DNA of 64,000 nt from Pyrinomonadales bacterium. Its GTDB lineage: Bacteria > Acidobacteriota > Blastocatellia > Pyrinomonadales > Pyrinomonadaceae. Position numbers and translations under genes: made by a program. The notes under the pieces were generated by a model. It saw only the letters and a program-made list of their open reading frames with translations, did no database searches and was not told the origin of the DNA. This document shows positions 7,087 to 62,714 of the stretch, in pieces. Numbering within the stretch: position 1 is the stretch's first letter; the number at the start of each line of letters is the position of its first letter. Location: the NCBI GenBank assembly GCA_038232235.1, contig JBBSIE010000002.1:24572-88571 (forward strand), in the 5' to 3' direction.

Positions 7087-7614
7087 ATGAAGGAAAAATA
7101 TATCCACATTTTAAGTATTCTGCTCGCCGGATTTTATTTTGTACTTATTGCGTGGATTTATCTTGTCGAGCCAAAATCTTTGAGCGAAGTGCCGACCAAA
7201 GCGCAGACGACAGTCGAAAACGTAACAACCAAAGCACAGGTTATTACGAACACTTACGAAGTTGATAAAGCAAAATTTGACGGTGGTTTAAAGGCATTTC
7301 GCGCCGATAATTTTGTCGCGGCGCGTGATTATTTCGAACGTGCCGATCCCGAAGGGCGCGATGCGGAAACGCAGTTTTACATCGCTTACAGCTATTACAG
7401 ACAAGGTTTCGGCAAAGTTTATAATGACGATGAACTTTTCAAACAAGGTTTGGAAGAAGCAAATAAAGTTATTGCGATTGATAAAAATTTCGAAAGCGAC
7501 GACGCGAATTTGCAGATGAAAACGCCCGTCGAATTGAAAAACGAATTTGAAGAAGGCTTGAAAGTTACGACGGGCGATTTTAATCCGTTCAAAGTTTTGC
7601 GCGAGAGAAAATAA
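7087..7614 (+). CDS. Membrane-anchored hypothetical protein (TPR-like)
   Basis: One N-terminal TM helix (ILSILLAGFYFVLIAWIYLV) followed by a helical-repeat-like region. Clean ORF with no family motif. Confidence 0.5.
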   Translation: MKEKYIHILSILLAGFYFVLIAWIYLVEPKSLSEVPTKAQTTVENVTTKAQVITNTYEVDKAKFDGGLKAFRADNFVAARDYFERADPEGRDAETQFYIAYSYYRQGFGKVYNDDELFKQGLEEANKVIAIDKNFESDDANLQMKTPVELKNEFEEGLKVTTGDFNPFKVLRERK

Positions 7615-7634
7615 AGTAAAAAGTAAAAAGTAAG
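7614..7634. repeat. Tandem heptamer (aagtaaa x2 + aagtaag)
   Basis: Read directly. It fills the gap between the stop at 7614 and the ATG at 7635. Confidence 0.85.
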
Positions 7635-8435
7635 ATGGGAGAAGTAAAAATAGAAGAAAGAGAATCGGTGCAGTTGGATGGAGAAATCGAGGCGAAAAAT
7701 CTGCTGATTATTGAAGGCGAACTGCTCGAAATTCCAGCCGACGAAGAAATCGCAGTCAAGCGTCGCGCCGATTTAGCAAAGGATAAAGACCAAAGACCAA
7801 AAATCAAAAACCAAAAACTTCACCTGCAATACATCTTTTTGCCTTTGATTTTTTTAACCGTCGCGCTGCTCGGCGGCTTGCGCCTGAACGCGGCGGATGA
7901 TGCGTTGATTTTTTTGAAACCGCCGCTCGTTTGTTTGATTTTTGCCGTGATTTTGCTTGTTTTGTTTTTTCGTTCTGGCTTATTGAAACTCGAAGGTTGG
8001 TTTTCTGAGAGCTTTTCGACATTAAAAAACGTCGCCAACGGAACGCTTTTGCTGACTTTGTTTTTCGCTTCGACTCAGATTTTCAACTCGCTTTTGCCGG
8101 AAAAAGGCTTGCCGTTCTGGATTTTCGCATTCTGTTTTTTTTGGACGCTCTGGAACAATTTGTTTGTTGAATTTCAAGGCAAAAAACTCTTGCAAAGTTT
8201 GGGCAGCGTTTTCGGATTGGCGTTTGTCGCCAAATATTTAATTTTGGCTTATATGACTGCGCCAACGAGCGAAAACTGGTGGCGCGGAATCCTGGAAAAT
8301 CCGACGCAGGAATTTTTTACATATCTGTTTGATTTGCCAAGATTTGCCGCCGGAACAGGTTACATTCAATTTTTCGCCGTCATTTTTTATTTGCTCGGAT
8401 TATTTTTGCTTCCGCCAATTTCGGCAAAAAACTAA
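7635..8435 (+). CDS. Polytopic membrane protein, hypothetical
   Basis: 266 aa with an acidic N-terminal tail and at least 6 hydrophobic segments. Confidence 0.5.
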   Translation: MGEVKIEERESVQLDGEIEAKNLLIIEGELLEIPADEEIAVKRRADLAKDKDQRPKIKNQKLHLQYIFLPLIFLTVALLGGLRLNAADDALIFLKPPLVCLIFAVILLVLFFRSGLLKLEGWFSESFSTLKNVANGTLLLTLFFASTQIFNSLLPEKGLPFWIFAFCFFWTLWNNLFVEFQGKKLLQSLGSVFGLAFVAKYLILAYMTAPTSENWWRGILENPTQEFFTYLFDLPRFAAGTGYIQFFAVIFYLLGLFLLPPISAKN

Positions 8436-8651
8436 TTTTAAATCTGATATTAAAAACAAATTTTATCTGTTAGCAAAAAACTTTTTATTCGTTTTCAAAC
8501 CGAATTTCTTTTATCCGAGCTTCATTGCAATTTTTTACTGAATTAAGTGAGATTTTTCTAAGTTATTTTTTGTCACAAATCTTTATTCTGCGGTGTTTAT
8601 TTACTTGAAAGAAGCAAATTTCAAATAAAAATAAAAAATTGGGAGTAAATT

Positions 8652-9470
8652 ATGATTTGGAGAAATATATTTTTTTGTGCGGCGGTTTTATTTACCGTTT
8701 TGACTTTATCGGCTTTCAGCATTTCGGCGCAGGGAAAGCCGGATAGAGGAAGTAATTTTTGCTCGGACAACTGGAACTGGAACGGCAAAATTCCCGCCCG
8801 CGAATTGCGGAACATTGTTTTGCCGCTTCGAAACAGCCTCGAAGTTGACGGAAAAGGAAACGGCGCAATCTCGGTACGCGGTGAAAACCGCAATGATATT
8901 TTGATTCGCGCTTGTGTTATGGTGTGGAGCGAGTCAAAAGCGGAGTCGGAAAACGCCGTCCGGCAAATCAAAATTAAAACGGATTCGGTCGTTGAATTTG
9001 ACGATGTTTCAAACGAAGCGGTGGCAGTTTCGTATCAAATTTTCGTGCCGCTCAATATAAATTTGAAACTGACGGCGAACAACGGCGGTATTTTAGTCAG
9101 TTCGATTAACGGAACGATGGAGTTATCTACAACGAACGGCGGCTTAGATTTACGAGATTTAGCCGGAAGCGTTACCGTCAAAACTCTAAACGGCGGCGTT
9201 TCCATCGAACTTTCGGGCAATACATGGAACGGAAACGGACTGGATGTTGAAACGAGAAACGGCGGCATAAAACTCTTGATGTCCGAAAATTTTGCCGCCA
9301 CTATTGAAACCGGAACACGTAACGGCGAATTCAAAAGCAAAATTAACGGATTACAGATCGAAGGCAAAAGCAGATGGAGCAACAACCGGATCAGTAGAAA
9401 TTTCAACGGCGGCGGTGCGCCCGTCCGCTTATTTACAAGCAACGGCGAAATCAAAATTGTTGCGCGTTAA
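8652..9470 (+). CDS. DUF4097-like beta-strand repeat protein (putative adhesin fold)
   Basis: GGGAG RBS; signal peptide; repeated NGG(I/V/L) strands (TANNGGILVSSINGTMELSTTNGGLDLRDLAGSVTVKTLNGGVSIEL..TRNGGIKL..TSNGEIKI). Confidence 0.7.
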   Translation: MIWRNIFFCAAVLFTVLTLSAFSISAQGKPDRGSNFCSDNWNWNGKIPARELRNIVLPLRNSLEVDGKGNGAISVRGENRNDILIRACVMVWSESKAESENAVRQIKIKTDSVVEFDDVSNEAVAVSYQIFVPLNINLKLTANNGGILVSSINGTMELSTTNGGLDLRDLAGSVTVKTLNGGVSIELSGNTWNGNGLDVETRNGGIKLLMSENFAATIETGTRNGEFKSKINGLQIEGKSRWSNNRISRNFNGGGAPVRLFTSNGEIKIVAR

Positions 9471-9493
9471 ACTAACCGCCGATTTTAAGGTGA

Positions 9494-9549
9494 AAAAAGA
9501 GTTTGACGCTTGCTTTTATAATAACCGAGCAAGCGTCAAACTCTTTTTT
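9494..9549. terminator. Bidirectional intrinsic terminator
   Basis: The 20-nt arm aaaaagagtttgacgcttgc (9494-9513) is the exact complement of 9529-9548. A-run and T-run flanks. Confidence 0.85.
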
Positions 9550-9773: not shown

Positions 9774-10070
9774 TTAATCGGCAAGATTTATTTCAAAAGG
9801 TGTTTCTTCTTCCAAAATCTTTTCGGAAACTACTTGATAAAGTTTGTCGGCATCTTGCCGGGAAACTTGTTTTTTGGCGGGAATTTCCAAAACTTTTACT
9901 TTCGTCAAACGATTGTGCCGCTTGATTTCGATTTCATCATTCGTCTTTATTTCGCGCGAAGATTTTGCCGTCAGATTATTGACTTTAACCAATCTGGCAT
10001 CACAAAACTTTTGCGCCAAAGTCCGGCGCAAAATCAAACGGCTGGCTTTTAGAAAAAGGTCGAGACGCAT
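9774..10070 (-). CDS. S4-domain RNA-binding protein (Hsp15/YlmH-like)
   Basis: MRLDLFLKASRLILRRTLAQKFCDARLVKVNN..K.S.EIK..DEIEI is a typical S4 fold signature. Confidence 0.8.
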   Translation of the reverse strand: MRLDLFLKASRLILRRTLAQKFCDARLVKVNNLTAKSSREIKTNDEIEIKRHNRLTKVKVLEIPAKKQVSRQDADKLYQVVSEKILEEETPFEINLAD

Positions 10071-10076
10071 ATTCTT

Positions 10077-10168
10077 AAAGGCGAAAGGCGAATGTAAAAA
10101 AATTTTAAAAACGTAAATGTATGTTTTAATCGAATACTTTTTACCTTTGCCTTTTTACTTTTTACCTT
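10077..10168. repeat. Short-unit inverted repeat (aaaggcg/gtaaaaa units)
   Basis: aaaggcgaaaggcgaatgtaaaaaaa (10077-10102) lies opposite ctttttacctttgcctttttactttttacctt (10137-10168). It sits between the surA-like stop (10169) and the S4 gene start (10070). Confidence 0.7.
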
Positions 10169-11227
10169 CTATTTTTCACTTTTTTTAGCTTCGGCTTTCT
10201 TTTCGACGGATAAAAACGGCTCGACCGACGATTGATAATCCTTGTTGATTTTTATGTACGCTTCATTACGCAAAGTTGATAAATATTTTTTTCGTTCATC
10301 GGGAAGTTTTTCGTAAGTCATCGCTTTCCGCACTTCGGATTCATCAAAATATGATTCGCTGCTGGCGTTCGTTCGCTCGTCAACGCGCAAAACTTCCATA
10401 CCTTCGGTAACTTCAATCGGATCGGTTATGCCGCCGGCTTTGACACTTTGCAAAGGTTTGGCAAATCGCGGATCCATTTCTTTGACATTAATCGCTGTTC
10501 CGACTTTTCCCTTGTTCGCTGCGACATCGGGGCGCTCCGAATTTTCCACCGCGAGTTTGCCAAAATCAACACCGCTTCGCGCCTGAGCGACAATATCTTT
10601 AGCTTTTTCTCTAACCGCTTTTTCATCGCGTCCGGCGAAACTCAGGAAAATTTCACTGATCGAAATGGTTTCAGGTTTGGTGAACTGCGCTTTGTGCGCT
10701 TCGTAATAACTTTTGATTTCTTTTGATGTCCAACCGAAGTAGATTTTCGAATCAACTTCCTTTTGCAAAACCAAATCTTTGGTAAATTGTCTGCGCCGAT
10801 TTTCGCGGAATTCTTGCGGATCAATCCCGCTTTTTTCCATTTCTTTATACAAAACATCGAGCGTTTTGATGTTTTGCTGTTTCATAATCTCGGCGAGTGA
10901 TTCATTAACACGAGAGTCAACTTCGGAATCCAGTCCGAGGTCTTTGCCTTTTTGCAGAAGAAGTTCTTCGTTGATAATACTGGCGATAAGTTCGCCTTGC
11001 TTACCTTCGACTTCCGCCTGCGCCTGTTCGCGGGTTTTGCCTTCCAAAACGGACGTTTCGACAATTCCCTTTATTTCGCGTTTGACGCGCGAAAGCGTAA
11101 TTACGCCGTCGTTGACCTGCGCGATTACTTCGTCAACCACCTTCATTTCGGTTTCTTGCGCGGATACTGCGAAATTTGTTAAAAATAAAACTGCAATTAA
11201 AAAAATTGCTGAGTTGATATATCTCAT
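10169..11227 (-). CDS. SurA-like periplasmic chaperone / parvulin PPIase
   Basis: Signal peptide, SurA N-terminal-like region (VDEVIAQVNDGVITLSRVKRE) and a PpiC-type rotamase region (ISEIFLSF..AKDIVAQARSGVDFGKLAVENSE). Confidence 0.8.
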   Translation of the reverse strand: MRYINSAIFLIAVLFLTNFAVSAQETEMKVVDEVIAQVNDGVITLSRVKREIKGIVETSVLEGKTREQAQAEVEGKQGELIASIINEELLLQKGKDLGLDSEVDSRVNESLAEIMKQQNIKTLDVLYKEMEKSGIDPQEFRENRRRQFTKDLVLQKEVDSKIYFGWTSKEIKSYYEAHKAQFTKPETISISEIFLSFAGRDEKAVREKAKDIVAQARSGVDFGKLAVENSERPDVAANKGKVGTAINVKEMDPRFAKPLQSVKAGGITDPIEVTEGMEVLRVDERTNASSESYFDESEVRKAMTYEKLPDERKKYLSTLRNEAYIKINKDYQSSVEPFLSVEKKAEAKKSEK

Positions 11228-11630: not shown

Positions 11631-11714
11631 ATAAAGGATGAAGGCGAAAGGATGAAGGATAAAGTAAAAGCTATTTCTTGTCCTTTATCCTTTCGCCTTC
11701 ATCCTTTCGCCTTT
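11631..11714. repeat. Heptamer-repeat hairpin (aagg-a/c-t/g-g/a units)
   Basis: 11633-11653 aaaggatgaaggcgaaaggat is the exact reverse complement of 11687-11707. The right arm lies inside the last 14 codons of lpxK. Confidence 0.9.
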
Positions 11715-12750
11715 CGGACGTGCGGGCTTCTGCCATATTTCTTAATAAATTACGAAATCCGCTTTCATTATCAAAAATCATTTCATTTTCAACTACAAAA
11801 CACGGCAAACCGAATTGTAAATCTTTCAATTTAACGGCATCTTTCGCCGTCGTCAGCAAAATTTCCGCACCGCTTTCACGAGCCTTTTTTTCAATTTTTG
11901 CGATGTCTTCTTTTTTGTAAAAATAATGATCGGGAAATTTTTGTGTTGCAGCTAAATCAAAATTTTCCAGTTTTAACTGTTCAAAAAAATTATTCGGATT
12001 GCCCAACGCACAAAACGACAAGACTTTTGTCCTTTGTTTTTCTTTCGTAATTAGCGGACTCTGCGCTTTTGCGTGAAAATCTTCTAAATTTATCAAACCG
12101 GAAATTTTGTTTTCCGCAATGAAAATCGGACAATCCAAATTATATTTCTTGACTTGAATTTTCAAATTTGAAACGTCTTCGCTCAAATTTGCCCGTGTAA
12201 CAAGAACCGCGTCGGCGCGTTCGAGATTTTTTAACGGTTCGCGCAAAATTCCCGACGGAAGTATTTTTTTATTGCCAAACGGGTTTGCCGCGTCAATCGT
12301 TACAATGTCCAAATCACGCTTAACTTTGCGATGCTGAAAAGCGTCATCAAGCACAAATGCCGTAATTCCAAATTTTTCACGCGCCCAACTTCCTGCCGAA
12401 ACACGATTTGCGTCGGCGACGACAATCGCTTTTCCCAAAAGTTTTCGGGCGAGTTCAAAAGGTTCATCGCCCGCTTGTTTCGCATCCGCCAAAATATTTT
12501 CGCCGTCGGACACCAGAACGCGGTTTTTCGGATTTTTCCGTCCGTAACCGCGCGAAATCACACAGACTTTTTCGCCCGATTCAGCCAAAACTTGCGCGAC
12601 AAAGGCAACTAGCGGAGTTTTTCCCGTTCCGCCAACCGTGATATTTCCCACGCTGACAACCGGAACGCCAAGCGAAAAAGATTTGAAAACACCTTTTTCA
12701 TACAGCGAATTACGCACTTCGATAATTGTTCCGTAAAACCGACTAAACAT
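11671..12750 (-). CDS. lpxK: Tetraacyldisaccharide 4'-kinase
   Basis: P-loop VGNITVGGTGKTP, ISRGYGRK, and LDDAFQH motifs are typical of LpxK. 359 aa including a repeat-encoded tail. Confidence 0.93.
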   Translation of the reverse strand: MFSRFYGTIIEVRNSLYEKGVFKSFSLGVPVVSVGNITVGGTGKTPLVAFVAQVLAESGEKVCVISRGYGRKNPKNRVLVSDGENILADAKQAGDEPFELARKLLGKAIVVADANRVSAGSWAREKFGITAFVLDDAFQHRKVKRDLDIVTIDAANPFGNKKILPSGILREPLKNLERADAVLVTRANLSEDVSNLKIQVKKYNLDCPIFIAENKISGLINLEDFHAKAQSPLITKEKQRTKVLSFCALGNPNNFFEQLKLENFDLAATQKFPDHYFYKKEDIAKIEKKARESGAEILLTTAKDAVKLKDLQFGLPCFVVENEMIFDNESGFRNLLRNMAEARTSERRKDEGERIKDKK

Positions 12751-12756
12751 ATTTTT

Positions 12757-12878
12757 CGTAAATCGTAATAAGAATTTTTCAAAATATTATTTTATAACTA
12801 ATTTAAGTCATAATTTACGCTCAAAATTCTATATCAAAAATCTATTTACGATTTACGATTTACGATTTACGATTTGTA
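12757..12878. repeat. (atttacg)x4 tandem heptamer with a distal inverted partner
   Basis: Four perfect atttacg units at 12844-12871, then atttgta. The inverted copy cgtaaatcgtaat is at 12757-12769, just upstream of the lpxK start. Confidence 0.9.
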
Positions 12879-19958: not shown

Positions 19959-21260
19959 ATGAATTGTACCGTTTGTAATCGAACCAATTCCGTAATTTTA
20001 TCAGTTTGCCCGACCTGCGGAGCAATGTTAAATGACTCTGTTCGTAAAGAGTTAAATCCTAAAATTTCTCCCGCTGCAAAACAAATAAATTTTGAAATGA
20101 AAGAAAAATCGTCCGTGTCGAACAAATTAAATCATCAAATTGCAGTTTCTAATTCGTCTGAACCGAAACAACACACGACGGAAATCACGGTCAAAATGAC
20201 CAGTCCGACATTGGTTGATTTTCAAAATAAAGACGCGACCATTCCAGAATGGCGCTTAAAGGTGCAGAACGCCGTGCGAAAGCGGCAGGGACAGAGCGAA
20301 TTGGCGACGGAAATGGCGGTTTTGCCGTCCGTCCGTCAATCGGAAAATTCAAATTTACAGCCTGCCCTTCAAAAAAGATTGGCGATTAGCGGCGCAAACG
20401 CGCTGAAAGCCGAAATTGTTGCAGAAGAAATTCCGATTGAACAACAAAATGCGACTTTAAGCAGTGCGTTGCAGCGCATCGAAGAATCGCGCCGGAAATT
20501 TTTGGAGGAAGAAAAAAAGGAAGTTTCAGCGACAGTATTGACACCGCCGACAAACAATAAACATCCGTTTTATATTGCAACAAAGCAGGCGGAAGTTACG
20601 CCGACAGTCGTCAAAGCCTCGATAAATCCGCCGATCAAGCCGAAACTCGCGCCGCCGTTAAAATTAGACAGCGAACCGCTTGATACAAATAAACTGCCGC
20701 CTTTGCCGCAGGAAGTGAAATCCGCCTTTGGTTTTGCTCAACGTCTTATAAGTACTTTCGTCGGTGAAGTAAAAATTGGAAAAACTGAAGAAAAAACGAA
20801 AAACACAGACGCGGAAATTGTCGAATCTGAAGAAATCATTGAGGAAATAGATGATTGTGCGCCATTGGCAATGCGCTTTAACGCCGGACTTTTCGATTTA
20901 ATCATCGGTTCGTTTTTAAGTATGATTTTGATTGCGCCGTTTGTGATTTCCGGTAGAAGTTGGTTCACTTTTGAAGGCTTTCTCGCATTTTTGGCAATCA
21001 CCGCAATCGTAATGTTCATTTATCTGACGACTACCATCGGCTTCTATGGCAGAACTTTCGGAATGCGGCTTTTTTCGCTGGAAGTCGTTGACATCGAAGG
21101 CGAAAATTATCCGACGATGCACCAGGCGGCGGTTAGTTCAGCCGTCTATATTTTGTCTTTGCTTTTTTGCGGAATCGGTTTTTTAACGGTTTTTTTCAAT
21201 GAAGATAACCGCGCCGCGCACGATCTGATTTCAAAAACCATCGTCGTCAAAGAATTTTAA
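19959..21260 (+). CDS. RDD-family membrane protein with N-terminal zinc-ribbon
   Basis: CTVC..x12..CPTCG at the N-terminus. The C-terminal RDD domain reads RFNAGLFDLIIG..GRTFGMRLFSLEVVD..RAAHDLISKTIVV. Confidence 0.75.
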   Translation: MNCTVCNRTNSVILSVCPTCGAMLNDSVRKELNPKISPAAKQINFEMKEKSSVSNKLNHQIAVSNSSEPKQHTTEITVKMTSPTLVDFQNKDATIPEWRLKVQNAVRKRQGQSELATEMAVLPSVRQSENSNLQPALQKRLAISGANALKAEIVAEEIPIEQQNATLSSALQRIEESRRKFLEEEKKEVSATVLTPPTNNKHPFYIATKQAEVTPTVVKASINPPIKPKLAPPLKLDSEPLDTNKLPPLPQEVKSAFGFAQRLISTFVGEVKIGKTEEKTKNTDAEIVESEEIIEEIDDCAPLAMRFNAGLFDLIIGSFLSMILIAPFVISGRSWFTFEGFLAFLAITAIVMFIYLTTTIGFYGRTFGMRLFSLEVVDIEGENYPTMHQAAVSSAVYILSLLFCGIGFLTVFFNEDNRAAHDLISKTIVVKEF

Positions 21261-21261
21261 T

Positions 21262-21310
21262 TCGTCAATCGCACTTTTTTCTATTTACGATTTACGATTG
21301 ACGATTTACA
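21262..21310. repeat. atttacg-family tandem heptamers with a short inverted partner
   Basis: atttacg atttacg attgacg atttaca at 21283-21310. tcgtcaatcg (21262-21271) is complementary to cgattgacga (21294-21303). The unit is the same as at 12844. Confidence 0.8.
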
Positions 21311-21321
21311 ATTAGAGAACT

Positions 21322-31078: not shown

Positions 31079-31106
31079 ATTCTTATTTCGCCACAGAAAA
31101 AGATTA

Positions 31107-38458: not shown

Positions 38459-38464
38459 CGCAAT

Positions 38465-39412: not shown

Positions 39413-39419
39413 TGATTTT

Positions 39420-40943: not shown

Positions 40944-41093
40944 TTTTTGGAAATAGAATGAAAATTGTCATCAAAAAAGAACATACGAAACCGAAATGTT
41001 CAATGTTCTGTGATAAATAATATATGATAATGCGGAAATGTTGAAAGATTGGCGCGGTTTATTCTTTCAATTGCAGTTCTTTTCAGCTAAAAT

Positions 41094-42071
41094 ATGGCAA
41101 AAATGTCTGAAATAAACAACACGACGACAAAAAAAACACCATCGCCCGACTGGTTTGTGCGCGGAATTTTGACCAAACTCGGCGAAATGTTCGACCAATT
41201 TACGGGCAGAAACTGGAAACCGTCGAGCAGTTTGGCGACCAGCGAATTGATTGAAAAATTAAAAAAACTCCTCGACGCGGAAGCCAGAGACGAAGGCGCG
41301 CGCGGCAAATTCGTGCCGCACAACATCAAACTTTTAATGCAGTGGGATAAATTTTCGACGGATTCGGAGAATGCGATGAAAAAACTCGAAGACGAATTAT
41401 TAATCGCCGCGATTGACCACATCAACGACAGGCGTTATCACACTTTCGCGCCGATGAAACTGGAAATAAAAAACGATTATTTCACCGAAGGTGTGAAACT
41501 TCAGGCGAGTTTCGGCGGCTTTGCCGAAAATAACGAGCGCGATGTTGCCGTCAATGTAACCGTTCCCGATTTGAAAAATGTGATTCTTAATCCGGTTGCG
41601 GAAGAAATCGTCGAACCGGAAAAGGAAATCTTCGTTGCGGAATTCGCTCTCAACGGCGCGGCGAAAAAAGTAAAATTGACGTTTGATGAAAAAGAGAGAA
41701 AAAGTGTCGGCAGAACAAAGGAAAATGATTTGGCGATTGACGACGCGAGCGTTTCAAAAATACACGCCGCGCTCGTTTTGAATTCCGACCGGCAATTAAT
41801 GGTCGCCGACACGGGTTCGACCAACGGAACATTTATCAACGGCGAACGTATCGCTTACGGCAGAGCATTTGTAATAAAAGACGGCGATAAATTGAAATTC
41901 GGCACGGTTGAAGTCGCGCTCGGACACATCGCAGCCGAAGCCGCTGAATCAATCGCCGCCGAAGATTTTTCGACTAATGACGATGTGCAAATTCCTGAAA
42001 ATTCTGCGGCGGAAAGCGATTTAAATTTAACGAAACGGATTGTCGTATCGAACTTCGACGACGGCAAATAA
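41094..42071 (+). CDS. FhaA-like protein (DUF3662 + FHA)
   Basis: The N-terminal FVRGILTKLGEMFD..FVPHNIKLLMQWDKF is DUF3662-like. The C-terminal FHA domain reads SVGRTKENDLAIDDASVSKIHAALVLNSDRQLMVADTGSTNGTFING. Confidence 0.85.
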   Translation: MAKMSEINNTTTKKTPSPDWFVRGILTKLGEMFDQFTGRNWKPSSSLATSELIEKLKKLLDAEARDEGARGKFVPHNIKLLMQWDKFSTDSENAMKKLEDELLIAAIDHINDRRYHTFAPMKLEIKNDYFTEGVKLQASFGGFAENNERDVAVNVTVPDLKNVILNPVAEEIVEPEKEIFVAEFALNGAAKKVKLTFDEKERKSVGRTKENDLAIDDASVSKIHAALVLNSDRQLMVADTGSTNGTFINGERIAYGRAFVIKDGDKLKFGTVEVALGHIAAEAAESIAAEDFSTNDDVQIPENSAAESDLNLTKRIVVSNFDDGK

Positions 42072-42080
42072 TTCAATTGA

Positions 42081-45643: not shown

Positions 45644-45674
45644 GATTTGAATTTTGAACTTTAAACTTTGAACT
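45623..45674. repeat. Heptamer-repeat hairpin (gttcaaa units) spanning the ftsW-like stop and the PP2C start
   Basis: agttcaaagttcaaagt (45625-45641) pairs with the right arm within gaactttaaactttgaact (45656-45674), 16 of 17. The ATG of the next gene is at 45675. Confidence 0.85.
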
Positions 45675-47272
45675 ATGGAAAATAACTTTCAAATTGATTC
45701 GGCTTCGGTTTCGGACAGAGGTTTAAGCAAAAAACGTCCTCAGAATGAAGATTCGTTTTTAGAAATGAATTCACGCGGTCTTTTTGCGGTTGCCGACGGC
45801 GTTGGCGGAGCGCAAGCCGGCGATGTCGCCTCGCAGATGGCGATGGAAATTCTCGGTGAAGCCTTTGTCAATTTGCAGGAAAACGGCGATGTCGAAGAAT
45901 TGATGAAAGTTGCGATTAAACGCGCTAACGAAGCGATTTATCAAATGTCGCACGACATGAAACAGCTTTCGACAATGGCAACAACGATTGTCGCGCTTCA
46001 CATCGCGGGCAATATTGCAACCATTGGTCACGTCGGCGATTCACGTCTTTACCGGCTCGACCCGAATGGAAGACTTTATCGTGAAACGCAGGATCATTCG
46101 GTGGTCGAGGAAGAAGTTCGTGCCGGACGAATGACTGCCGCGCAAGCCGCGACGCATCCGAGCCGCAACGTCATCAGCCGTGCGCTCGGCGCAGATTATG
46201 CGGTTGAAATTGATATGAAAACGATTATGTTCGAGCCACACACGACATTTTTTCTCTGCTCGGACGGCATCACGCGCCATATTGACGATTTTGAACTGCG
46301 CGACCTTTTACTCTCCGGCGATAAACCCGCGAATATCGTGCAAAAAATGAAAGATATTTGCTATCAACGCGGCGCGGAAGACAATTTGACCGCCGTTGTC
46401 GCCAAAGTAACAGATGTCGCTGCAGAAAAGTTTAACGGCGCGAAAAACGAAATTCCCGCCGAATATGAAGAAGCGACGATTGCAACAGCGCGTCCTCCGG
46501 CAGTTGTTGAAGATGCAGTTTTTGCCGAACAATCTTTGCCGGACGAAGAAGTGCCGACTCAAAATCTTCAATCGCCGATGTCTGAAGAACTACAAACGCG
46601 TGAAGTTGTTCAGACAAACCAAAATGAAAATCCCGAAACCGAAAAAAATCGAAATATATTTTCTTTTCCGGCTGAAAGTGCGGATAATAAGCCGATTCAA
46701 AGAAACGAAATTGTCAGAGAGGACAAAACTTATTTTGCAGAAGAAAAAGCCGAAAGCAGTATTCTCGGCAAAATAATAACGCCTTTGCTGACATTTTTTT
46801 TGGGCGGAATTTTATTTGCGGGAATCTATCATTTGTGGGCGCAAAACAATGTCGAACCGCAAGTTCCACAATTAGTTCAGCAATCGCCCGACATTCCGTT
46901 TAAAGCTTTTGAAGACAATCGGCGCAATGTTGACGGAAATCCGCGGCAATATATTGCAACCAATTTAACTTCAACACCGGAAGATGCCGAAGATTTTTAT
47001 CTGATGGGACGTGCTTATCTGCTGATCGGTAAATTTCCCGAAGCTAAAGAGATGTTTTTACAGGCAAAAGACCGCCTTGCACAGACGAGCGAAGTAAATA
47101 ACAGAGTTTTGGCAAATGATATTATTTTGAGTCTGGCTGTTATCAATGACGAATTTGCCAAAAGAGAAGTTGCAAAAGAATTAAATTTGAATATATCCAA
47201 CACAAATACGCAAACTAATTCTAATAATAGCGCAAATTCTCTTCGCGGAACTCAAAATTTTAACGGAAGGTA

Positions 47273-47273
<1 letters not shown>
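45675..47273 (+). CDS. PP2C-family Ser/Thr phosphatase with TM segment and C-terminal TPR-like region
   Basis: NEDSF, FAVADGVGG, GDSRLY and CSDGIT motifs; TM IITPLLTFFLGGILFAGIYHLW. Confidence 0.9.
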
Positions 47274-48181
<908 letters not shown>

Positions 48182-49767: not shown

Positions 49768-49814
49768 AAAGTTAAAATTTAAAAGTTTGATTTTCTTTAA
49801 CTTTGAACTTTGAG
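49768..49814. repeat. aactttg-family short repeat with a 9-bp inverted partner
   Basis: aaagttaaa (49768-49776) pairs with tttaacttt (49796-49804); aactttg aactttg at 49799-49812. It lies directly after the pyk stop. Confidence 0.6.
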
Positions 49815-50101
49815 AATTATTGACATATTTTGATTAGTATTTTGTCTTGCACAAGCTGTTAAAAGCATTGCAACAGACAAAAAAGCGGCAGCGTAAAATT
49901 TTTCACCATAAATTCCTCTGCCGCATTTGTTAAAAAGAAAAGTTCTAAATCCAAACTTTGCAGCGAAAACAACATAACGCATATGTTATATTATTTTCTT
50001 AAAAAATCTAAAACTCTTCATATACTTTCGTTGAGTTTTATTTTCAAACAAAAAGCTCCGCAAAATTTTGCAGAGCTTTTTGTTTAATTAGTTTTTGATG
50101 A

Positions 50102-57703: not shown

Positions 57704-58888
57704 ATGATCGATTTTTCGATAAACACAAAACTCGTCCACGCGGGCGAACGTCGGACACAGCCGACTGGAAAGCCGGTTGCCACGCCGCTTTATGCGACGG
57801 CGACTTATACTTACGATTCGATGGCGGAAATGGACGCGGCTTTTGCGGGCGAAGGCGGCGATTATATTTATTCGCGTTACGGAAATCCGACGGTTGCGGC
57901 ACTTGAAGACGCGCTCGCGGCGATTGAAAACGGTAAGGTTGCGGTGGCTTTCGGTTCGGGAATGGCGGCGATTCACGCGGCTTTGTTTGCCTGCGAAATC
58001 ACGAACGGTTCGATTGTGCTTGCGTCGCAGGATTTATACGGCGCGTCGTATGATTTGCTGAATAAAATTTTCGGCGTTTACGGCGTGAAAACGAAAACTG
58101 CCGATTTTAATAATTTGGATGAATTGAAAAATAAAGTTTTAGAATTGAAACCGCGTGTTTTGTTGGCGGAAACGATTTCAAATCCGCTTTTGAAGATTTG
58201 CGATATTGAAAAAGTCGCGGAAATCGCACACGACGTGGGCGCGAAATTGATTGTTGACAATACTTTCGCATCGCCTTTTTTATGTCAGCCGCTGACGTTG
58301 GGCGCAGATTTTTCGGTTCATTCGGCGACGAAATATCTAAGCGGACACGCCGACGCAACCGGCGGAATTGTCGTTTCAAACGATGAATTTGACCGTCCGA
58401 TGCTCGACGGAATAAAGAAACTCGTCGGCGGCATTTTGAGTGTTTGGGAAGCGCATCAGATTTTGCGCGGCGTGAAAACGCTCGGTTTGCGGCAGGAAAA
58501 ACAATGTCGAAACGCCGAAATATTGGTGAAAACGCTGGCGAAAAATGAATTTATAAAAAAGGTTTATTATCCGCTCACTGACGATAAAGAATTGACAAAA
58601 AAAGTTTTGCGCGACGATTTCGGCGGCGCGTTGGTTTCGATAAAATTGAAAAACGAGACCAGAGAAGCGGCTTGGAAATTTATGGATTCGTTAAAACTAT
58701 GCGTTCGCGCCACGAGTTTGGGCGATGTCTATACGCTCGTTTCGCATTCGGCTTCGTCGTCGCACCGCGAACTTTCGCCGAAACGCCGCGCCGATCTTGG
58801 GATTTCCGACGGACTCGTGCGAATTTCGGTTGGGATTGAAGACTTGAAAGATATTATTGAAGACATTGAGCAGGCTTTAAGAAAATAA
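57704..58888 (+). CDS. Cys/Met-metabolism PLP enzyme (O-acetyl/succinyl-homoserine sulfhydrylase or cystathionine gamma-synthase-like)
   Basis: PVATPLYATATY, YSRYGNPT and HSATKYLSGHAD (PLP Lys). 394 aa. Confidence 0.85.
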   Translation: MIDFSINTKLVHAGERRTQPTGKPVATPLYATATYTYDSMAEMDAAFAGEGGDYIYSRYGNPTVAALEDALAAIENGKVAVAFGSGMAAIHAALFACEITNGSIVLASQDLYGASYDLLNKIFGVYGVKTKTADFNNLDELKNKVLELKPRVLLAETISNPLLKICDIEKVAEIAHDVGAKLIVDNTFASPFLCQPLTLGADFSVHSATKYLSGHADATGGIVVSNDEFDRPMLDGIKKLVGGILSVWEAHQILRGVKTLGLRQEKQCRNAEILVKTLAKNEFIKKVYYPLTDDKELTKKVLRDDFGGALVSIKLKNETREAAWKFMDSLKLCVRATSLGDVYTLVSHSASSSHRELSPKRRADLGISDGLVRISVGIEDLKDIIEDIEQALRK

Positions 58889-58891
58889 TTA

Positions 58892-58977
58892 TCCACAGAT
58901 AAACACAGATGAAGTCAGATATTTTGAAAAATTTTATCAAATAAAAATTATTTTTCTTATCTGTGTTTATCTGTGGA
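58892..58977. repeat. cagataaac-family hairpin, perfect 19-bp stem
   Basis: 58892-58910 tccacagataaacacagat is the exact reverse complement of 58959-58977, with a 48-nt AT-rich loop. Confidence 0.95.
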
Positions 58978-58991
58978 CAAAAAATAATATT

Positions 58992-59423
58992 ATGATTTCG
59001 ATCAGTGAAGAATTAATCGAGCAAATCAAAAAGCACGGCGAAAAGACTTATCCGCACGAGTGCGGCGGAATGTTAATCGGACATTTTGATGCTGAGAAAG
59101 GCAAACAAATCGTCGAACTTTTGCCGATGGAAAATGCGATGGACAAAGCCGAACAGCATAATCGCGTTTTGATTTTGCCGAAAGACGTGCTTCGCGCCGA
59201 ACGGCAAGCGCGTGAAAAAAAACTCGATGTCGTCGGTTATTATCATTCGCACCCGGACGATAAAGCTGTGCCGTCGCAGTTTGATTTAGAACATGCGCTT
59301 CCGGTTTGGTCATATATTATTGTGTCGGTTTTACAAGGCAAAGCGGTTGATGTGCGCTCGTGGCAAATGGAAAATGACCGCTCGAAATTTAATGAAGAAG
59401 AAATAAAAAGGGAAGAAATTTAG
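58992..59423 (+). CDS. JAMM/MPN+ metalloprotease (Mec/HcyD/QbsD-like)
   Basis: YPHECGG (Glu) and the YYHSHPDDKAVPSQFD JAMM motif. 143 aa. Confidence 0.88.
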   Translation: MISISEELIEQIKKHGEKTYPHECGGMLIGHFDAEKGKQIVELLPMENAMDKAEQHNRVLILPKDVLRAERQAREKKLDVVGYYHSHPDDKAVPSQFDLEHALPVWSYIIVSVLQGKAVDVRSWQMENDRSKFNEEEIKREEI

Positions 59424-59510
59424 CCGCAGATAAACGCAGATAATTTAAGAAAGATAAATCAAATGCGAAGCAATCTATAAATTGGAATAAAATCTGCATT
59501 TATCTGCGGC
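59423..59510. repeat. cagataaac-family hairpin, 18/19-bp stem
   Basis: gccgcagataaacgcagat (59423-59441) pairs with atctgcatttatctgcggc (59492-59510), with a 50-nt loop. Confidence 0.92.
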
Positions 59511-59537
59511 TATTAAATGGTTTAAGGAGTAAATTTT

Positions 59538-60986
59538 ATGGCAGTGACAATAGTAATTCCGACACCTTTGCGACAGTTCGCTGGCGGAAAATCCGAAATT
59601 GAGGTCGAAGCGACAACGGCGGGCGAAGCGTTGGAAAAATTGACAACGAAACACGCCGAGTTAAAAAAACATCTTTATAACGACGGCGGAAATTTGCGAA
59701 ATTTCGTTAATGTCTATGTCGGCGATGAAGATATTCGTGATTTGGACGGACTTGAAACGCAAGTTAAAAGCGGCGGCGAAATTTTGATTGTGCCTTCGAT
59801 TGCGGGCGGAAATCTCGCGGCACAACCTAAAACATCGGAAGAATTGCCGACGCTTTCGACTGAAGAATACGCCAGATATTCGCGGCATTTGATTTTGCCC
59901 GAAGTCGGTATGGAAGGACAGAGAAAATTAAAAGCGGCGCGTGTTTTGATGATCGGTACGGGCGGTTTGGGTTCGCCTTTGGGCTTATATTTGGCGGCGG
60001 CGGGCATCGGCACAATCGGTTTGGTTGATTTCGATGTCGTTGACGAGTCGAATCTCCAACGCCAAATTATTCACGGCACAAAAGATGTCGGACGACCAAA
60101 AATCGAATCGGCGCAAGACCGTTTGAAAGATATCAATCCGAATACAAAAATCGAAGCACACGAAACTCGTCTGACGAGCGGAAATGCGCTTGAATTGTTT
60201 AAAGATTTTGATGTCGTCGTTGACGGAACGGACAACTTTCCGACGCGCTATTTGGTTAATGACGCTTGTGTTTTGACCGGAAAGCCGAATGTTTACGGTT
60301 CTATTTTCCGTTTTGAAGGACAGGCGAGTGTTTTTTGGGCGGAAAAAGGCGCGTGTTACAGATGTTTGTATCCTGAACCGCCGCCGCCGGGACTTGTTCC
60401 GAGCTGCGCGGAAGGCGGAGTTTTGGGCGTTTTGCCCGGAATTGTCGGCACGATTCAGGCGAATGAAGTCTTAAAAGTTATTTTGGGCGCGGAAGGAATT
60501 TTATTAAATCGGCTTTTGCTTTTCGATGCGTGGAAAATGAAATTCCGCGAATTGAAACTCAAGAAAAATCCCGATTGCCCGATTTGCGGCGACAATCCGA
60601 CGATCAAGGAATTGATTGATTATGAAGCATTTTGCGGTTTAAATTTGCCGACTGAAACTCCCGTTTTAGAAGAAATTACAGTAACGGAATTAAACGATTT
60701 GATAAAAAATAACAGCGAAGTTCAGATTATTGATGTGCGCGAACCGCACGAATTTGAAATTGCCAAAATTCCGAATACAAAACTTATTCCGCTCGCGCAA
60801 GTTGTCAATCGCGCTAAGGAAATTGACCAATCGCGTACGGCAATTATTCACTGCAAAGCCGGCGGACGCAGCGCGAAAGCAATTCAAGCGTTGCAGGAAA
60901 ACGGTTATAAAGGCAAATTATTGAATTTGAAAGGTGGAATTACGGCTTGGTCGGACGAAATTGATTCGAGCGTTCCCAAATATTAA
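59538..60986 (+). CDS. Fusion: CysO/ThiS/MoaD-like beta-grasp (ending GG at aa 90-91) + MoeB/ThiF-type E1 adenylyltransferase + rhodanese (MoeZ-like)
   Basis: Aa 1-91 read MAVTIVIPTPLRQFAGGK...GGEILIVPSIAGG. Then YSRHLILPEVG, GTGGLGSP and CxxC pairs (CYRC, CPIC). The rhodanese active site is HCKAGGRS. Confidence 0.85.
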   Translation: MAVTIVIPTPLRQFAGGKSEIEVEATTAGEALEKLTTKHAELKKHLYNDGGNLRNFVNVYVGDEDIRDLDGLETQVKSGGEILIVPSIAGGNLAAQPKTSEELPTLSTEEYARYSRHLILPEVGMEGQRKLKAARVLMIGTGGLGSPLGLYLAAAGIGTIGLVDFDVVDESNLQRQIIHGTKDVGRPKIESAQDRLKDINPNTKIEAHETRLTSGNALELFKDFDVVVDGTDNFPTRYLVNDACVLTGKPNVYGSIFRFEGQASVFWAEKGACYRCLYPEPPPPGLVPSCAEGGVLGVLPGIVGTIQANEVLKVILGAEGILLNRLLLFDAWKMKFRELKLKKNPDCPICGDNPTIKELIDYEAFCGLNLPTETPVLEEITVTELNDLIKNNSEVQIIDVREPHEFEIAKIPNTKLIPLAQVVNRAKEIDQSRTAIIHCKAGGRSAKAIQALQENGYKGKLLNLKGGITAWSDEIDSSVPKY

Positions 60987-61049: not shown

Positions 61050-61103
61050 CATACTCAAATCCGAATTCACATAATCCGCTGCAAATGGCATAATTTATTA
61101 GCG

Positions 61104-62036
61104 ATGAACGATTACCGAATTTTTTATTCACCTTATTATTATGCCGAAATCGGCGAAAATCACGTTTTTCCGATAAAGAAATTTGAACTTGTGCGCGATA
61201 AACTTCTCGCCGAAGGAACTTTGCGAGAAAATGAAATTATTGAGCCGCAACCGGCGAAAATCGAAGATTTGTTGCTCGTTCACACGGAAGATTACATAAC
61301 GCATCTGCGCGCCGGAACGCTTGATAAAAAAGAAGTTCGACGGCTCGGTTTGCCTTGGTCTGAATCGCTCGTTCGGCGAACATTTCTTGCAGTTTCGGGA
61401 ACGATCAACGCTTCACTTCACGCGCTCGAAACCGGAATTGCGTCAAACCTCGCGGGCGGAACGCATCATTCTTTTCCTGATCGCGGCGAAGGTTTTTGCG
61501 TTCTAAATGATGTTGCCGTTGCGATTAGAGTTTTGCAGCGCGAAAATCTGGCAAGCAGATTTTTGATTATTGACTGCGACGTTCATCAAGGCAACGGCAC
61601 GGCGTTTATTTTTCAAAACGAAGAAGAAATTTTTACATTTTCGATGCACGGCGAGAAAAATTATCCGCTGTTTAAGGAAAAATCCAATCTCGACATCGAA
61701 TTGCGCGACGGAACTTCCGACGCGGAATATCTCGAAACCTTGAGCGAAGCACTGCCGCGAATTTTTATGCACGATCCCGATATTGTTTTTTATCTCGGCG
61801 GCGCAGACCCGTTTGAAAAAGACAAACTCGGACGGCTTAAACTTACGATGGAAGGTTTGATGAAACGCGACGAAATGGTCTTGGAATTTGCCAAACAACG
61901 CGAAGTGCCGATTGTTACGGTAATGTCGGGCGGTTATGCGAAAGACATAAACGACACGGTTGAAATCCATTCAAACACAATTCGCGCGGTGAAAAAAGTT
62001 TTCGGTCAATCGCAGAGTCAGAATGCTTTCGCCTAA
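61104..62036 (+). CDS. Histone deacetylase-family (HDAC/AcuC-like) deacetylase
   Basis: Start at M25, after the terminator. GGTHHSFPDRGEGFCVLNDVAVA, IDCDVHQGNGT and GGADPF motifs. Confidence 0.88.
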   Translation: MNDYRIFYSPYYYAEIGENHVFPIKKFELVRDKLLAEGTLRENEIIEPQPAKIEDLLLVHTEDYITHLRAGTLDKKEVRRLGLPWSESLVRRTFLAVSGTINASLHALETGIASNLAGGTHHSFPDRGEGFCVLNDVAVAIRVLQRENLASRFLIIDCDVHQGNGTAFIFQNEEEIFTFSMHGEKNYPLFKEKSNLDIELRDGTSDAEYLETLSEALPRIFMHDPDIVFYLGGADPFEKDKLGRLKLTMEGLMKRDEMVLEFAKQREVPIVTVMSGGYAKDINDTVEIHSNTIRAVKKVFGQSQSQNAFA

Positions 62037-62049
62037 ATGTTTTGCCGGA

Positions 62050-62622
62050 TTATTTTGCATTTGCAGATTCTTCGACGGTTTTGTCCAAACGATTTTTGAC
62101 CGTCAAATCATAGCCGACAAATTTTTGTGTTAACTTGCCGTTGCGGTCAAAAACGGCAGTTTGCGGAATTTCGTCTCGAGTCGCAAAAACAAACTGCATT
62201 AAGGCATCTTCGGGAGTTGCCAAAACGTAATTTATCTTCAATTTTTCGGCAAACGCGGGAATTTTCGGACGATCATCTTCGCCGCCGACATTTAATCCGA
62301 CGATCTGCATATTCTCTGCGCCGTATTTTGCTTGTAGTTCATTCAAATGTGGGATTTCCTCCAAACACGGCGGGCAGTAAGTTGCCCAAAAATCCAACAC
62401 GACGACTTTTCCCTGCAAATCTTTGAGTTTTTGCTCTTTGCCATCGAGCGTCGTCCAACTCATTTCGCCCAACGGTTTCGACGGCGGCAGCGGCACATTT
62501 GTCTGCGGAACGCTGTTAATTGAAACGGGTTTGTTGGAAACGGAAACCGGCGCGGCTGCCGGACGACACGCTAAAGCAAGTAAAAAGTAAAAAGTAAAAA
62601 GTAAAAAGTAAAAATATCTCAT
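62050..62622 (-). CDS. TlpA/ResA-like thiol-disulfide oxidoreductase lipoprotein
   Basis: LALAC lipobox; VLDFWATYCPPCLEEIP; thioredoxin fold. The signal peptide is encoded by the gtaaaaa repeat. Confidence 0.85.
   Translation of the reverse strand: MRYFYFLLFTFYFLLALACRPAAAPVSVSNKPVSINSVPQTNVPLPPSKPLGEMSWTTLDGKEQKLKDLQGKVVVLDFWATYCPPCLEEIPHLNELQAKYGAENMQIVGLNVGGEDDRPKIPAFAEKLKINYVLATPEDALMQFVFATRDEIPQTAVFDRNGKLTQKFVGYDLTVKNRLDKTVEESANAK
62580..62614. repeat. (gtaaaaa)x5 tandem heptamer inside the 5' end of a CDS
   Basis: Read directly. On the coding strand it gives MRYFYFLLFTFYFLL. Confidence 0.95.
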
Positions 62623-62633
62623 AGAAAGTTATT

Positions 62634-62714
62634 GTTAAATGTTAAATCGTAAATTGTAGAATGTAAATCTTTAACCGTTTGTTCTTCATTTACCATTTAC
62701 CATTTACCATTTAC
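62634..62714. repeat. Opposed heptamer arrays (gttaaat-family x5 and catttac x4)
   Basis: gttaaat gttaaat cgtaaat tgtagaa tgtaaat at 62634-62668; catttac x4 at 62687-62714. The two arms are imperfectly complementary. Confidence 0.8.

Follow-up and report, generated by a model that had tools for sequence, protein, structure and literature searches.

Palindromic Heptamer Repeats Resembling STRR Elements in the Intergenic DNA of Pyrinomonadaceae

Introduction

What are the short tandem repeats that face each other as inverted arms in the gene spacers of an acidobacterium, and do they belong to a known class of elements? The question is raised by a 64-kb stretch of DNA from a Pyrinomonadales bacterium (contig JBBSIE010000002.1; hereafter the window, meaning the whole stretch analyzed). 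There, the initial annotation listed at least 15 loci with arrays of 7- or 10-nucleotide (nt) units and read them as one family of hairpins, reminiscent of the short tandemly repeated repetitive (STRR) sequences of cyanobacteria but possibly an undescribed class. STRRs were described in 1990, and heptamer repeats have been used for decades as fingerprinting markers.

STRR-like heptamer palindromes are real and lineage-wide in Pyrinomonadaceae. They are an STRR-like variant in a new lineage and phylum, not a new class, and the loci with 10-nt units form a class of their own. Judged from the sequences, the chances are about even that the palindromes originate from slippage in 7-nt steps together with copying from arm to arm and that they act as stem-loops at gene ends and between cistrons.

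Sequences and Searches

The window was compared with 80 loci of up to 21 kb each from related genomes (L001 to L080), for a total of 1.38 Mb. The relatives were retrieved with the LarA-like protein of the window; hence, all of them are sampled around one syntenic locus. All 80 are metagenome-assembled genomes (MAGs) of Acidobacteriota/Blastocatellia/Pyrinomonadaceae, complete chromosomes among them, and their LarA-like proteins share 65–92% amino-acid identity with that of the window. L001 is collinear with positions 31999–39473 of the window at 93.9% nucleotide identity and has the elements of that region in common with it. A more distant relative, L081, is one of 3 loci from a metagenome scan with the TerC protein.

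Dinucleotide shuffles served as the chance baseline, with perfect repeats of at least 2.5 copies being counted, and the intergenic set for this comparison consisted of 150 kb from the window and the 80 relatives. Across the window and L001 to L080, 118 heptamer hairpins were defined. A stem score of at least 12 was the threshold for a long hairpin. Because the MAFFT alignment of orthologous hairpins was unreliable through register ambiguity, their arms were compared species by species instead.

Heptamer Excess and Lineage Distribution

Perfect period-7 repeats number 9 in the whole window as against 0.1 in the shuffles, and 5 as against 0.04 in its intergenic DNA. In the 150-kb intergenic set, 88 were observed and 0.35 expected, so that the enrichment over shuffled intergenic sequence, which had been named as a test by the initial annotation, is present. 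Other periods in the same set are close to expectation (observed/expected 40/42.7 for period 4, 5/6.0 for period 5, and 3/1.9 for period 6), and period 8 shows a small excess (6 versus 0.05). A control of 50 kb from E. coli K-12, run through the same code, gave no period-7 repeat. Tandem Repeats Finder (TRF), applied to the 1.38 Mb, assigns period 7 to 358 of 1196 arrays, period 14 to 68, and period 21 to 51. Of these 358 period-7 arrays, 244 are intergenic, 23 lie at a gene boundary, and 91 are coding, even though the gene calls used place about 88% of the DNA in coding sequence. The window itself holds 13 heptamer loci by our count, and the density across the relatives is patchy: some loci have none, others up to about 10 arrays per 10 kb.

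Low-complexity sequence may give rise to assembly or sequencing artefacts, and the repetitive nature of the DNA is all that speaks for such an origin here. The same hairpins are found at orthologous sites in the independent assemblies L001 (93.9% identity), L002, L003, and L005 and also in the complete chromosomes OZ244585.1 and OZ244558.1, and the arrays are short (15–50 nt), well within read length. Because the hairpins recur in independent assemblies, an artefact, which the initial annotation had raised, is excluded, and its probability is considered practically negligible.

Architecture of the Heptamer Hairpins

The inverted arrangement is the rule. Among 99 pairs of neighboring heptamer arrays (at most 150 nt apart), 69 are inverted, 1 is direct, and 29 are unrelated. 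The fraction of intergenic period-7 arrays that lie within a stem scoring at least 12 is 61%, compared with 13% of control intergenic segments and 38–52% for periods 8–10. The 118 hairpins have a median arm of 24 nt and a median loop of 23 nt. The arms are not only complementary but mirrored in detail: unit variants occur inside an arm in 98 of the 118 hairpins, and at 647 of 766 variant positions the other arm supplies the complementary base. Arm complementarity is 93% in register and falls to 67–69% after a slide of 7 nt.

Nested hairpins are also seen (L034 8332–8511, L018 ~5760–5890, L029 ~2850–2975, and window 47272–47354). In these, non-repeat or CRCRRA outer stems enclose heptamer inner arms, or heptamer outer arms enclose a small unique stem.

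The units themselves are diverse. The dominant units of the 118 hairpins fall into 81 classes, and no universal core is present in them, the best 4-mer (AAAG) occurring in 26% of units. Nevertheless, units recur significantly at distant sites, as had been pointed out before: in the window, a unit class is common to both members in 12 of 78 pairs of loci. Over all genomes, sharing amounts to 5.8% of within-genome pairs, 1.4% of pairs between genomes, and about 0.2% of random intergenic heptamers. Local slippage alone is therefore insufficient to account for the recurrence. It may stem from A-rich units being preferred, from templated copying at ectopic sites, or from spread in the manner of the doublets of repetitive extragenic palindromic (REP) sequences known as REPINs.

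The last of these deserves consideration in its own right. REP sequences, with the related bacterial interspersed mosaic elements (BIMEs) and REPINs, are extragenic hairpins that stabilize upstream mRNA and sometimes terminate transcription; REPs follow one consensus throughout a genome and are linked to a REP-associated tyrosine transposase (RAYT). The heptamer palindromes might likewise be replicators: an enzyme encoded in the genome, for example, a RAYT-like transposase, would place copies of the doublets in new spacers, and every genome would thereby acquire a unit repertoire of its own. Unit sharing within genomes, the two-arm hairpin form, the extragenic position, and the core of the CRCRRA class (described below), conserved across 31 genomes, are in keeping with such a process. 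The heptamer class, however, has no shared consensus, as expressed by the 81 units in 118 hairpins and their only partial recurrence, and elements with the same unit have unrelated loops and flanks. The elements showed neither terminal repeats nor duplicated target sites, and neither a transposase, including the IS200/IS605-like Y1 type of RAYT, nor a reverse transcriptase is present among the 50 window open reading frames (ORFs) scanned with Pfam. Moreover, the elements evolve in place at orthologous sites, and A-rich units may recur simply through being favored. Replicators of the REP/REPIN type are thus very unlikely, and the REP-like membership proposed earlier does not hold for the heptamer repeats.

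In a second reading, each array would offer a row of sites to a protein whose footprint on a single strand is 7 nt, for example, a cold-shock-domain protein that serves as RNA chaperone or antiterminator by melting the hairpin. T-rich heptamers are bound by B. subtilis CspB at a ratio of one protein to 7 nt (reviewed in PMC4679880), and a binding partner has been postulated for the heptamers of Nostoc (bioRxiv 10.1101/2022.06.06.494920). In the present hairpins, the 3′ arms are T-rich, and cores of the CTTT/AAAG type are about 4-fold enriched. The suggestion is an analogy: no motif reaches more than 26% of units, the diversity of units is far too great for sequence-specific recognition, and no candidate gene is linked to the elements, so that this role appears scarcely probable.

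Position at Gene Ends and Likeness to Ordinary Hairpins

The heptamer hairpins lie in co-directional (62), convergent (24), and divergent (21) spacers, and 2 are inside genes, which corresponds to 0.77, 0.91, and 0.47 hairpins per kb of co-directional, convergent, and divergent spacer, respectively. As first described, the elements are found where genes end, in operon spacers as well as between convergent genes. In co-directional spacers, 41 of 62 hairpins either overlap the stop codon of the upstream gene or begin no more than 11 nt past it, and the distance to the next start is broader (median 25 nt). The statement that the elements sit just after stop codons is accordingly correct for this majority across relatives; it does not apply to the window array 35956–35988, because that array encodes the C-terminal tail of a cation-efflux protein.

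Indeed, heptamer arrays are translated as short C-terminal tails rich in K, E, S, and R in four proteins of the window: the cation-efflux protein (35956–35991), LpxK (11671–11716), a SurA-like protein (10169–10184), and a SpoU methylase (47357–47376). The SKVQ-type tail of the cation-efflux protein is conserved in several species. For annotators, this means that repeat arrays lengthen ORFs by C-terminal tails and that gene starts and ends may be miscalled in these MAGs, with stops shifted.

Hairpins without repeats mark gene ends in these genomes as well. Stems scoring at least 12 are found within 140 nt at 20.6% of gene 3′ ends and in 0.3% of gene interiors, and about a quarter of those at 3′ ends are 7-periodic. 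Hairpins with unique arms occupy 37% of convergent, 23% of co-directional, and 11% of divergent spacers; those with repeat arms occupy 14%, 12%, and 6%, in the same ranking. The two kinds rarely share a spacer: in co-directional spacers, both were observed together once, versus about 11.6 expected (Fisher p = 2e-5). They also share a polarity, with a purine-rich 5′ arm and a pyrimidine-rich 3′ arm, and in convergent spacers, the bias is 19:1 for repeat and 49:7 for unique hairpins.

Moreover, the two kinds replace each other. In 37 comparisons of a heptamer hairpin with the orthologous site of another species (species pairs at 82–94% identity), the partner was a strong hairpin in 22 cases and a weak one in 9, and none was present in 6. 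The partner hairpin may carry the same heptamer unit or another one. It may also take a different form, such as a 33-bp non-repeat stem (L003 versus L004), a canonical A6-stem-T6 terminator (L064 versus L080), or a palindrome of GCGGATGAACGC-type units (L016).

Evolution at Orthologous Sites

In the spacer between an FhaA-like gene and the TerC gene, an AAAGTCC-type hairpin is kept in five species (window, L001, L002, L003, and L005), and the units in both of its arms are species-specific: AGAGTC in L001, AAAGACA in L002, and AAAGTCT together with AAAGCCC in L003. The L002 hairpin is paired at 30 of 30 positions, and the window and L001 differ by a 7-nt indel in one arm. L081 has only the TerC-side arm at this site, plus a canonical terminator. 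Intergenic indels between species pairs are 7 nt long in 12 cases, 6 nt in 10, and 8 nt in 4; these counts refer to alignable DNA only, diverged spacers being missing from the blastn alignments. Because many matched changes are found at 85–94% overall identity, we infer from the sequences that the arms have probably been templated on each other, on top of 7-nt slippage.

A more far-reaching proposal may be derived from the same material. The heptamer palindromes might be written by a dedicated, genome-specific copying process, either a REPIN-like replicator or templated repair, that founds and renews the two arms and spreads favored units to new gene ends, instead of by generic slippage. It is suggested because each genome has its own unit “dialect” (5.8% versus 1.4%) and because both arms change together, and it is held to be quite unlikely. 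If it were true, this lineage, whose elements are short and diverse, would offer the first tractable handle on the proliferation of 7-nt repeats in cyanobacteria, Xanthomonas, and others.

Possible Origin and Role

The initial annotation had considered a role as terminator or RNA-stability element, or an origin from slippage and repair, and these are reasonable readings. In the scheme preferred here, replication slippage in 7-nt steps would create the arrays, as suggested by the 7-specific excess and by the gain and loss of 7-nt units. The second arm would then be copied from the first by fold-back inverted duplication of a solo array and/or by intrastrand template switching (quasi-palindrome correction), slow compensatory mutation being a less likely route to mirrored arms. 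Purifying selection would confine the arrays to spacers and tolerated C-terminal tails. The resulting stem-loops at transcript 3′ ends or between cistrons may cause bidirectional termination or pausing and may act as a barrier to 3′ exonucleases. Where the stem or loop contains the upstream stop codon and the 3′ arm borders on the following start, as between RodA and PP2C, upstream translation could unmask the downstream start. The stem-loop role is proposed because repeat-armed hairpins share the position, polarity, and context of ordinary hairpins, interchange with them at orthologous sites, and rarely co-occur with them.

Several observations weigh against this scheme. A T-tract (at least 5 T in the 8 nt downstream) follows just 16 of the 118 repeat hairpins, so that the earlier remark on the usual lack of a U-tract stands, and a scan for canonical terminators found 38 versus 37.4 expected, with no overlap with any repeat hairpin. 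Of the 118 hairpins, 21 are located between divergent genes. The six orthologous comparisons out of 37 in which the partner has no hairpin and the 16 of 80 relatives without a heptamer array in their locus (2.5–21 kb) point in the same direction, and the gene calls are crude longest-ORF calls. In the comparison of the window with L001, divergence is faster in the arms than in the loop. Finally, G.U-compatible transition mismatches are more frequent on the sense strand in unique hairpins (43:25), as expected of functional RNA stems, and their ratio in repeat hairpins is 15:24 (17:33 in a first count; difference from unique hairpins p = 0.016). Since the repeat hairpins are without this sense-strand signature, their pairing looks maintained at the DNA level and not selected in RNA.

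In co-directional spacers, the G.U-compatible mismatches of repeat hairpins favor the antisense strand (33:17, p = 0.03, or 24:15), contrary to those of unique hairpins, these counts being small and non-independent. A strand-biased mutation or repair process may be responsible.

Several of these points are also expected if the palindromes are a neutral by-product of 7-nt slippage and template-switch repair, arising wherever selection tolerates them and having no function of their own. Their likeness to gene-end hairpins would then come from seeding by such hairpins and from the spacers being the sole tolerated place. The missing G.U signature, the faster divergence of the arms relative to the loop, and the presence of elements in all three spacer types fit this explanation. 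So do the extreme diversity of units (81 in 118), the patchy phylogenetic distribution, the spilling of arrays into coding tails, the unequal arms, and the commonness of solo arrays (39% of intergenic arrays). Polymerase slippage is, in addition, the cause to which Mrazek and co-workers ascribed the heptamer excess in many bacteria (summarised in PMC4679880, PMC4692102). A neutral origin does not readily account for the mutual exclusion of repeat and ordinary hairpins per spacer (p = 2e-5), the ordinary hairpins that stand in at orthologous sites, the shared polarity with its strongest bias between convergent genes (19:1), or the hairpin kept across five species with both arms updated together. 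It is regarded as less likely but as a serious rival, and the reading as functional gene-end stem-loops is retained at the even chance given above.

Heptamer repeats are thus abundant in a third, unrelated lineage, the mostly uncultured soil bacteria of the Pyrinomonadaceae. In this family, they occur mainly as hairpins whose arms evolve in concert and which are positionally interchangeable with ordinary gene-end stem-loops.

The CRCRRA Class

The single family of 7- and 10-nt repeats first proposed has to be divided. Its heptamer-periodic part is real, and the three loci with 10-nt units (31104, 58889, and 59421) belong to a separate class. Their units, CACGAACAAA, CACAGATAAA, and CGCAGATAAA, have the common core CRCRRA with 2–4 variable bases. 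The same core occurs in relatives with periods of 8–10 nt, for example, as CGCAAAGA, CACAGAGA, and CGCGGA-type units. Members of the class, most of which form hairpins, include L016 7289–7392, L062 7152–7266, L064 4246–4299, and L069 11353–11480. The CRCRRA pattern has 47 intergenic and 5 coding matches in 31 of 81 genomes, some of them without heptamer arrays, and a mirror-image control pattern has 3 matches. In the strictly defined inverted pairs, the CRCRRA strand forms the 5′ arm in 7 of 7. This class is not to be merged with the heptamer class because it is defined by sequence, and its conserved core suggests a motif for specific binding or recognition.

Long palindromes of GCGGATGAACGC(Y)GAT-type 10-nt units, alike across genomes and sites, are found at L016 8652–8776, L023 ~1190–1315, L027 ~9890–10000, and L024 18149–18228. 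In the window, the sequence GCAGATAAACGC at 59426 is two mismatches from this type of unit. These palindromes may constitute a conserved REP-like subfamily of the CRCRRA class.

Elements of the Window

TRF reports short tandem arrays at all 15 coordinates listed by the initial annotation; period 7 is dominant, and period 10 is found at 31109, 58894, and 59425. The claim of inverted arms at all of them is valid in part. On the basis of an inverted-repeat search and of RNA folding against shuffles, 10 of the 15 loci are hairpins (that at 49768 more weakly), 2 are solo arrays (7613 and 35956), and 3 show weak pairing (10077, 34908, and 62578). The four perfect stems of 21, 21, 19, and 18 bp that had been noted hold approximately. 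In RNA folding, 8 of 10 tested elements are far more stable than shuffles (z −4.2 to −11.2), and no marked stability is seen at 62575–62722 (z −1.6) and 10075–10200 (z −0.3). The inverted-repeat search also recovers the arm pairs 31094/31152, 12756/12836, 45621/45646, and 21253/21295.

The first array of the window (AAAGTAA x3, 7613–7633) is solo and bridges the stop of ORF 7087–7614 and an ATG at 7635. The other solo array (AAAGTCC x4.7, 35956–35988, forward strand) is inside the 3′ end of the cation-efflux gene (35017–35991) and encodes the tail SKVQSPKSKAQS. The stem search found no partner arm for either of them. Weak pairing (stem score 11, z −0.28) characterizes the locus 10077–10184, which consists of AAAGGCG x2.3 (10077–10092) and a TACTTTT-type array x7 (10135–10184, also with period 21); the latter extends over the final codons of the SurA-like gene (10169–11227, minus strand; Pfam). 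At 34908–34998, upstream of the cation-efflux gene, ATTAGAT x3 and ATTTATC x2 arrays have the weak partner ACATCTAAAATCT (stem score 10), and they are conserved in L001 at 96% identity. An array cluster at 62578–62720, composed of AAGTAAA x5.3, TGTTAAA/TAAATCG, and CATTTAC x4.6, is partially paired (stem score 15, z −1.6) and lies between divergent redoxin and NifU genes.

Among the heptamer hairpins, the one at 11633–11707 is strong (dG −46.1, z −9.4), with the units ATAAAGG, ATGAAGG, and CGAAAGG mirrored in both arms (11633/11678, 30 nt, 93% complementary). The stop codon of LpxK (11671–11673) is within its loop, and one arm therefore encodes the C-terminal tail of LpxK. Between the LpxK start and the stop of a PagL-like gene, the hairpin at 12756–12875 (z −4.2 for 12756–12858) has arms of unequal length, a short CGTAAAT arm (12756–12778) pairing with an ATTTACG x4.6 array (12844–12875). 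The hairpin at 21253–21313 has CGTCAAT/ATTTACG-type units in 19-nt arms (89% complementary) and fills the spacer from the stop of an RDD-family gene (21260) to the start of an NFACT gene (21322; both by Pfam). A strong AAAGTCC/GGACTTT hairpin at 38391–38458 (dG −44.2, z −11.2; arms 38391/38431, 28 nt, 93%) separates the FhaA-like stop (38465) from the TerC start (38358).

Further downstream, an AAGTTCA/TGAACTT hairpin at 45625–45674 (z −4.2) lies inside a row of FHA, penicillin-binding protein (PBP), RodA, and PP2C genes; the RodA/FtsW stop codon (45641–45643) is at the edge of its loop, and its 3′ arm is flush with the ATG of PP2C (45675). The next hairpin, of AGTAAAA/AAAAGGC units (47272–47376; arms 47272/47327), includes 19 perfect bp (47272–47290 with 47336–47354; z −5.4 for 47272–47354). 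It spans exactly from the PP2C stop (47271–47273) to the stop of the SpoU-methylase gene (47357–47359), and the array extends into the SpoU tail as far as 47376. The weak AAAGTTA/AACTTTG hairpin at 49768–49813 (stem score 10; inverted arms over 49768–49811) begins 1 nt past the stop of pyruvate kinase (49767).

Perfect palindromes of 20–23 bp with the A-tract/stem/T-tract structure of canonical bidirectional intrinsic terminators were recovered by the inverted-repeat search at 5368–5415, 9493–9549, and 50046–50085; hence, the genome also uses conventional terminators. The last of these is in the same convergent spacer as the weak heptamer hairpin at 49768.

The three CRCRRA-class hairpins are at 31104–31182 (CACGAACAAA x2.6, period 10; z −9.0), 58889–58980 (CACAGATAAA units; z −8.4), and 59421–59512 (CGCAGATAAA units; z −6.2). 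The first is between convergent thioredoxin-like and histidine-kinase genes, and its 3′ arm reaches the kinase stop codon. The second (arms 58889/58959, 22 nt, 95% complementary) begins 1 nt past the stop of a Cys/Met pyridoxal phosphate- (PLP-) dependent enzyme gene and ends 11 nt before the ATG of a JAB gene (58992). The third (arms 59421/59492, 21 nt, 95%) has the JAB stop codon (59421–59423) as the first 3 nt of its 5′ arm and is followed by a ThiS-ThiF-rhodanese gene from 59538.

The genes of the window are ordinary housekeeping genes. The sigma-54 context that had been invoked comes down to one response-regulator gene (27528–28874) among them and has no bearing on the repeats. The row at 38465–47273 comprises genes for an FhaA-like protein, a Ser/Thr kinase, an FHA protein, a PBP transpeptidase, RodA/FtsW, and a PP2C phosphatase and resembles the actinobacterial fhaA-fhaB-pstP-rodA-pbpA-pknAB cell-wall signaling cluster, here in an acidobacterium. 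A second row (57704–60986) encodes the Cys/Met PLP-dependent enzyme, a JAB/MPN peptidase, and a ThiS-ThiF-rhodanese fusion, with strong CRCRRA hairpins between the cistrons; these genes look like a sulfur-carrier-protein pathway for thio-amino-acid synthesis. The cation-efflux/LarA block (35017–37300) and the TerC/FhaA/Ser-Thr-kinase block (37324–40958) are inverted relative to each other in the window and L001 as compared with L002–L005, and one inversion breakpoint adjoins the repeat-rich spacer 34908–35016.

Comparison with Known Systems

Several established classes were tried and rejected. Rfam gave no match at gathering score in the window, and ARAGORN found no tRNA or tmRNA there. Canonical intrinsic terminators have a short GC-rich stem, a loop of 3–8 nt, and a T-tract, and the repeat hairpins do not have this form. 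They resemble bidirectional intrinsic terminators in the A/purine-rich 5′ side, the T/pyrimidine-rich 3′ side, and the preference for convergent and co-directional spacers but differ in their considerably longer stems (median 24 nt), larger loops (median 23 nt), mostly absent T-tract, and periodic arms. In miniature inverted-repeat transposable elements, terminal inverted repeats, target-site duplications, and near-identical copies would be expected; here the whole element is the inverted repeat, and neither duplications at its flanks nor a common internal sequence was seen. CRISPR arrays, in which direct repeats of 23–50 nt alternate with unique spacers of similar length, are set apart by the contiguous units of 7–10 nt and by partner arrays that are inverted, not direct (69:1). 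Integron attC sites are rejected in view of the housekeeping genes and the absence of R′/R″ cores, and G-quadruplex repeats in view of the absence of G-runs.

With REP/BIME/REPIN elements, the heptamer hairpins share the extragenic position just past stops, in operons and between convergent genes, the genome-specific families, and the doublet architecture. They are unlike REPs in being without a consensus, in having internally tandem-repeated arms, and in that no RAYT was seen in the window.

Direct TAACTGA heptamers of marine Beggiatoaceae, cyanobacteria, and some Bacteroidetes are intergenic and often flush with the start codon (PMC4679880). That family has one unit, almost always in direct orientation (a single inverted set among 170), and its place is upstream of starts, whereas the present hairpins follow stops; TAACTGA doublets number 6 in the 1.38 Mb and 0 in the window. 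TTTTGAA repeats near start codons of Nostoc may have regulatory effects (bioRxiv 10.1101/2022.06.06.494920).

Xanthomonas genomes contain 70–75 convergent pairs of GGGAATC arrays each, able to form stem-loops or cruciforms, and the length and sequence of these arrays vary between related species at conserved sites (PMC4692102). Intergenic tandem heptamers in convergent pairs with stem-loop potential are thus common to both groups. The Xanthomonas repeats have a single G-rich unit with G-quadruplex potential, unlike the dozens of A/T-rich units without G-runs found here.

The STRR family is among the closest known systems, and the resemblance noted at the outset is confirmed. Hairpin-forming STRR heptamers are known from Nostoc, Anabaena, and Lyngbya, where they lie in the hupS–hupL spacer and upstream of hoxW, with proposed roles in transcript stability, translational coupling, or termination (PMC2670836); paired heptamer repeats are reportedly few in Nostoc (PMC4692102). 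Like STRRs, the present elements consist of tandem 7-nt units, several per genome, with species-specific repertoires and intergenic dispersal near gene ends and starts, and some STRRs form hairpins as well. The known units CCCCAGT (STRR1), TTGGTCA (STRR2), CAACAGT (STRR3), GGGGAYT, and GGGAATC do not occur in tandem in the window, and CAACAGT forms one doublet in the 1.38 Mb. The elements are also unlike STRRs in their host phylum, Acidobacteriota instead of heterocystous cyanobacteria, and in the inverted two-arm form, which is the majority here (61%); for arms with mirrored variants, no STRR description was found.

The inverted architecture had been taken as the sign of a different, undescribed class. 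Hairpin-forming heptamer repeats have, however, already been described in cyanobacteria (PMC2670836) and, as convergent pairs, in Xanthomonas (PMC4692102), and for this reason, the heptamer hairpins are an STRR-like variant and not a new class. No published account of such repeats in Acidobacteriota was found. The novelty lies in the host lineage (Acidobacteriota, Pyrinomonadaceae), in the predominance of inverted arrays, and in the variety of units.

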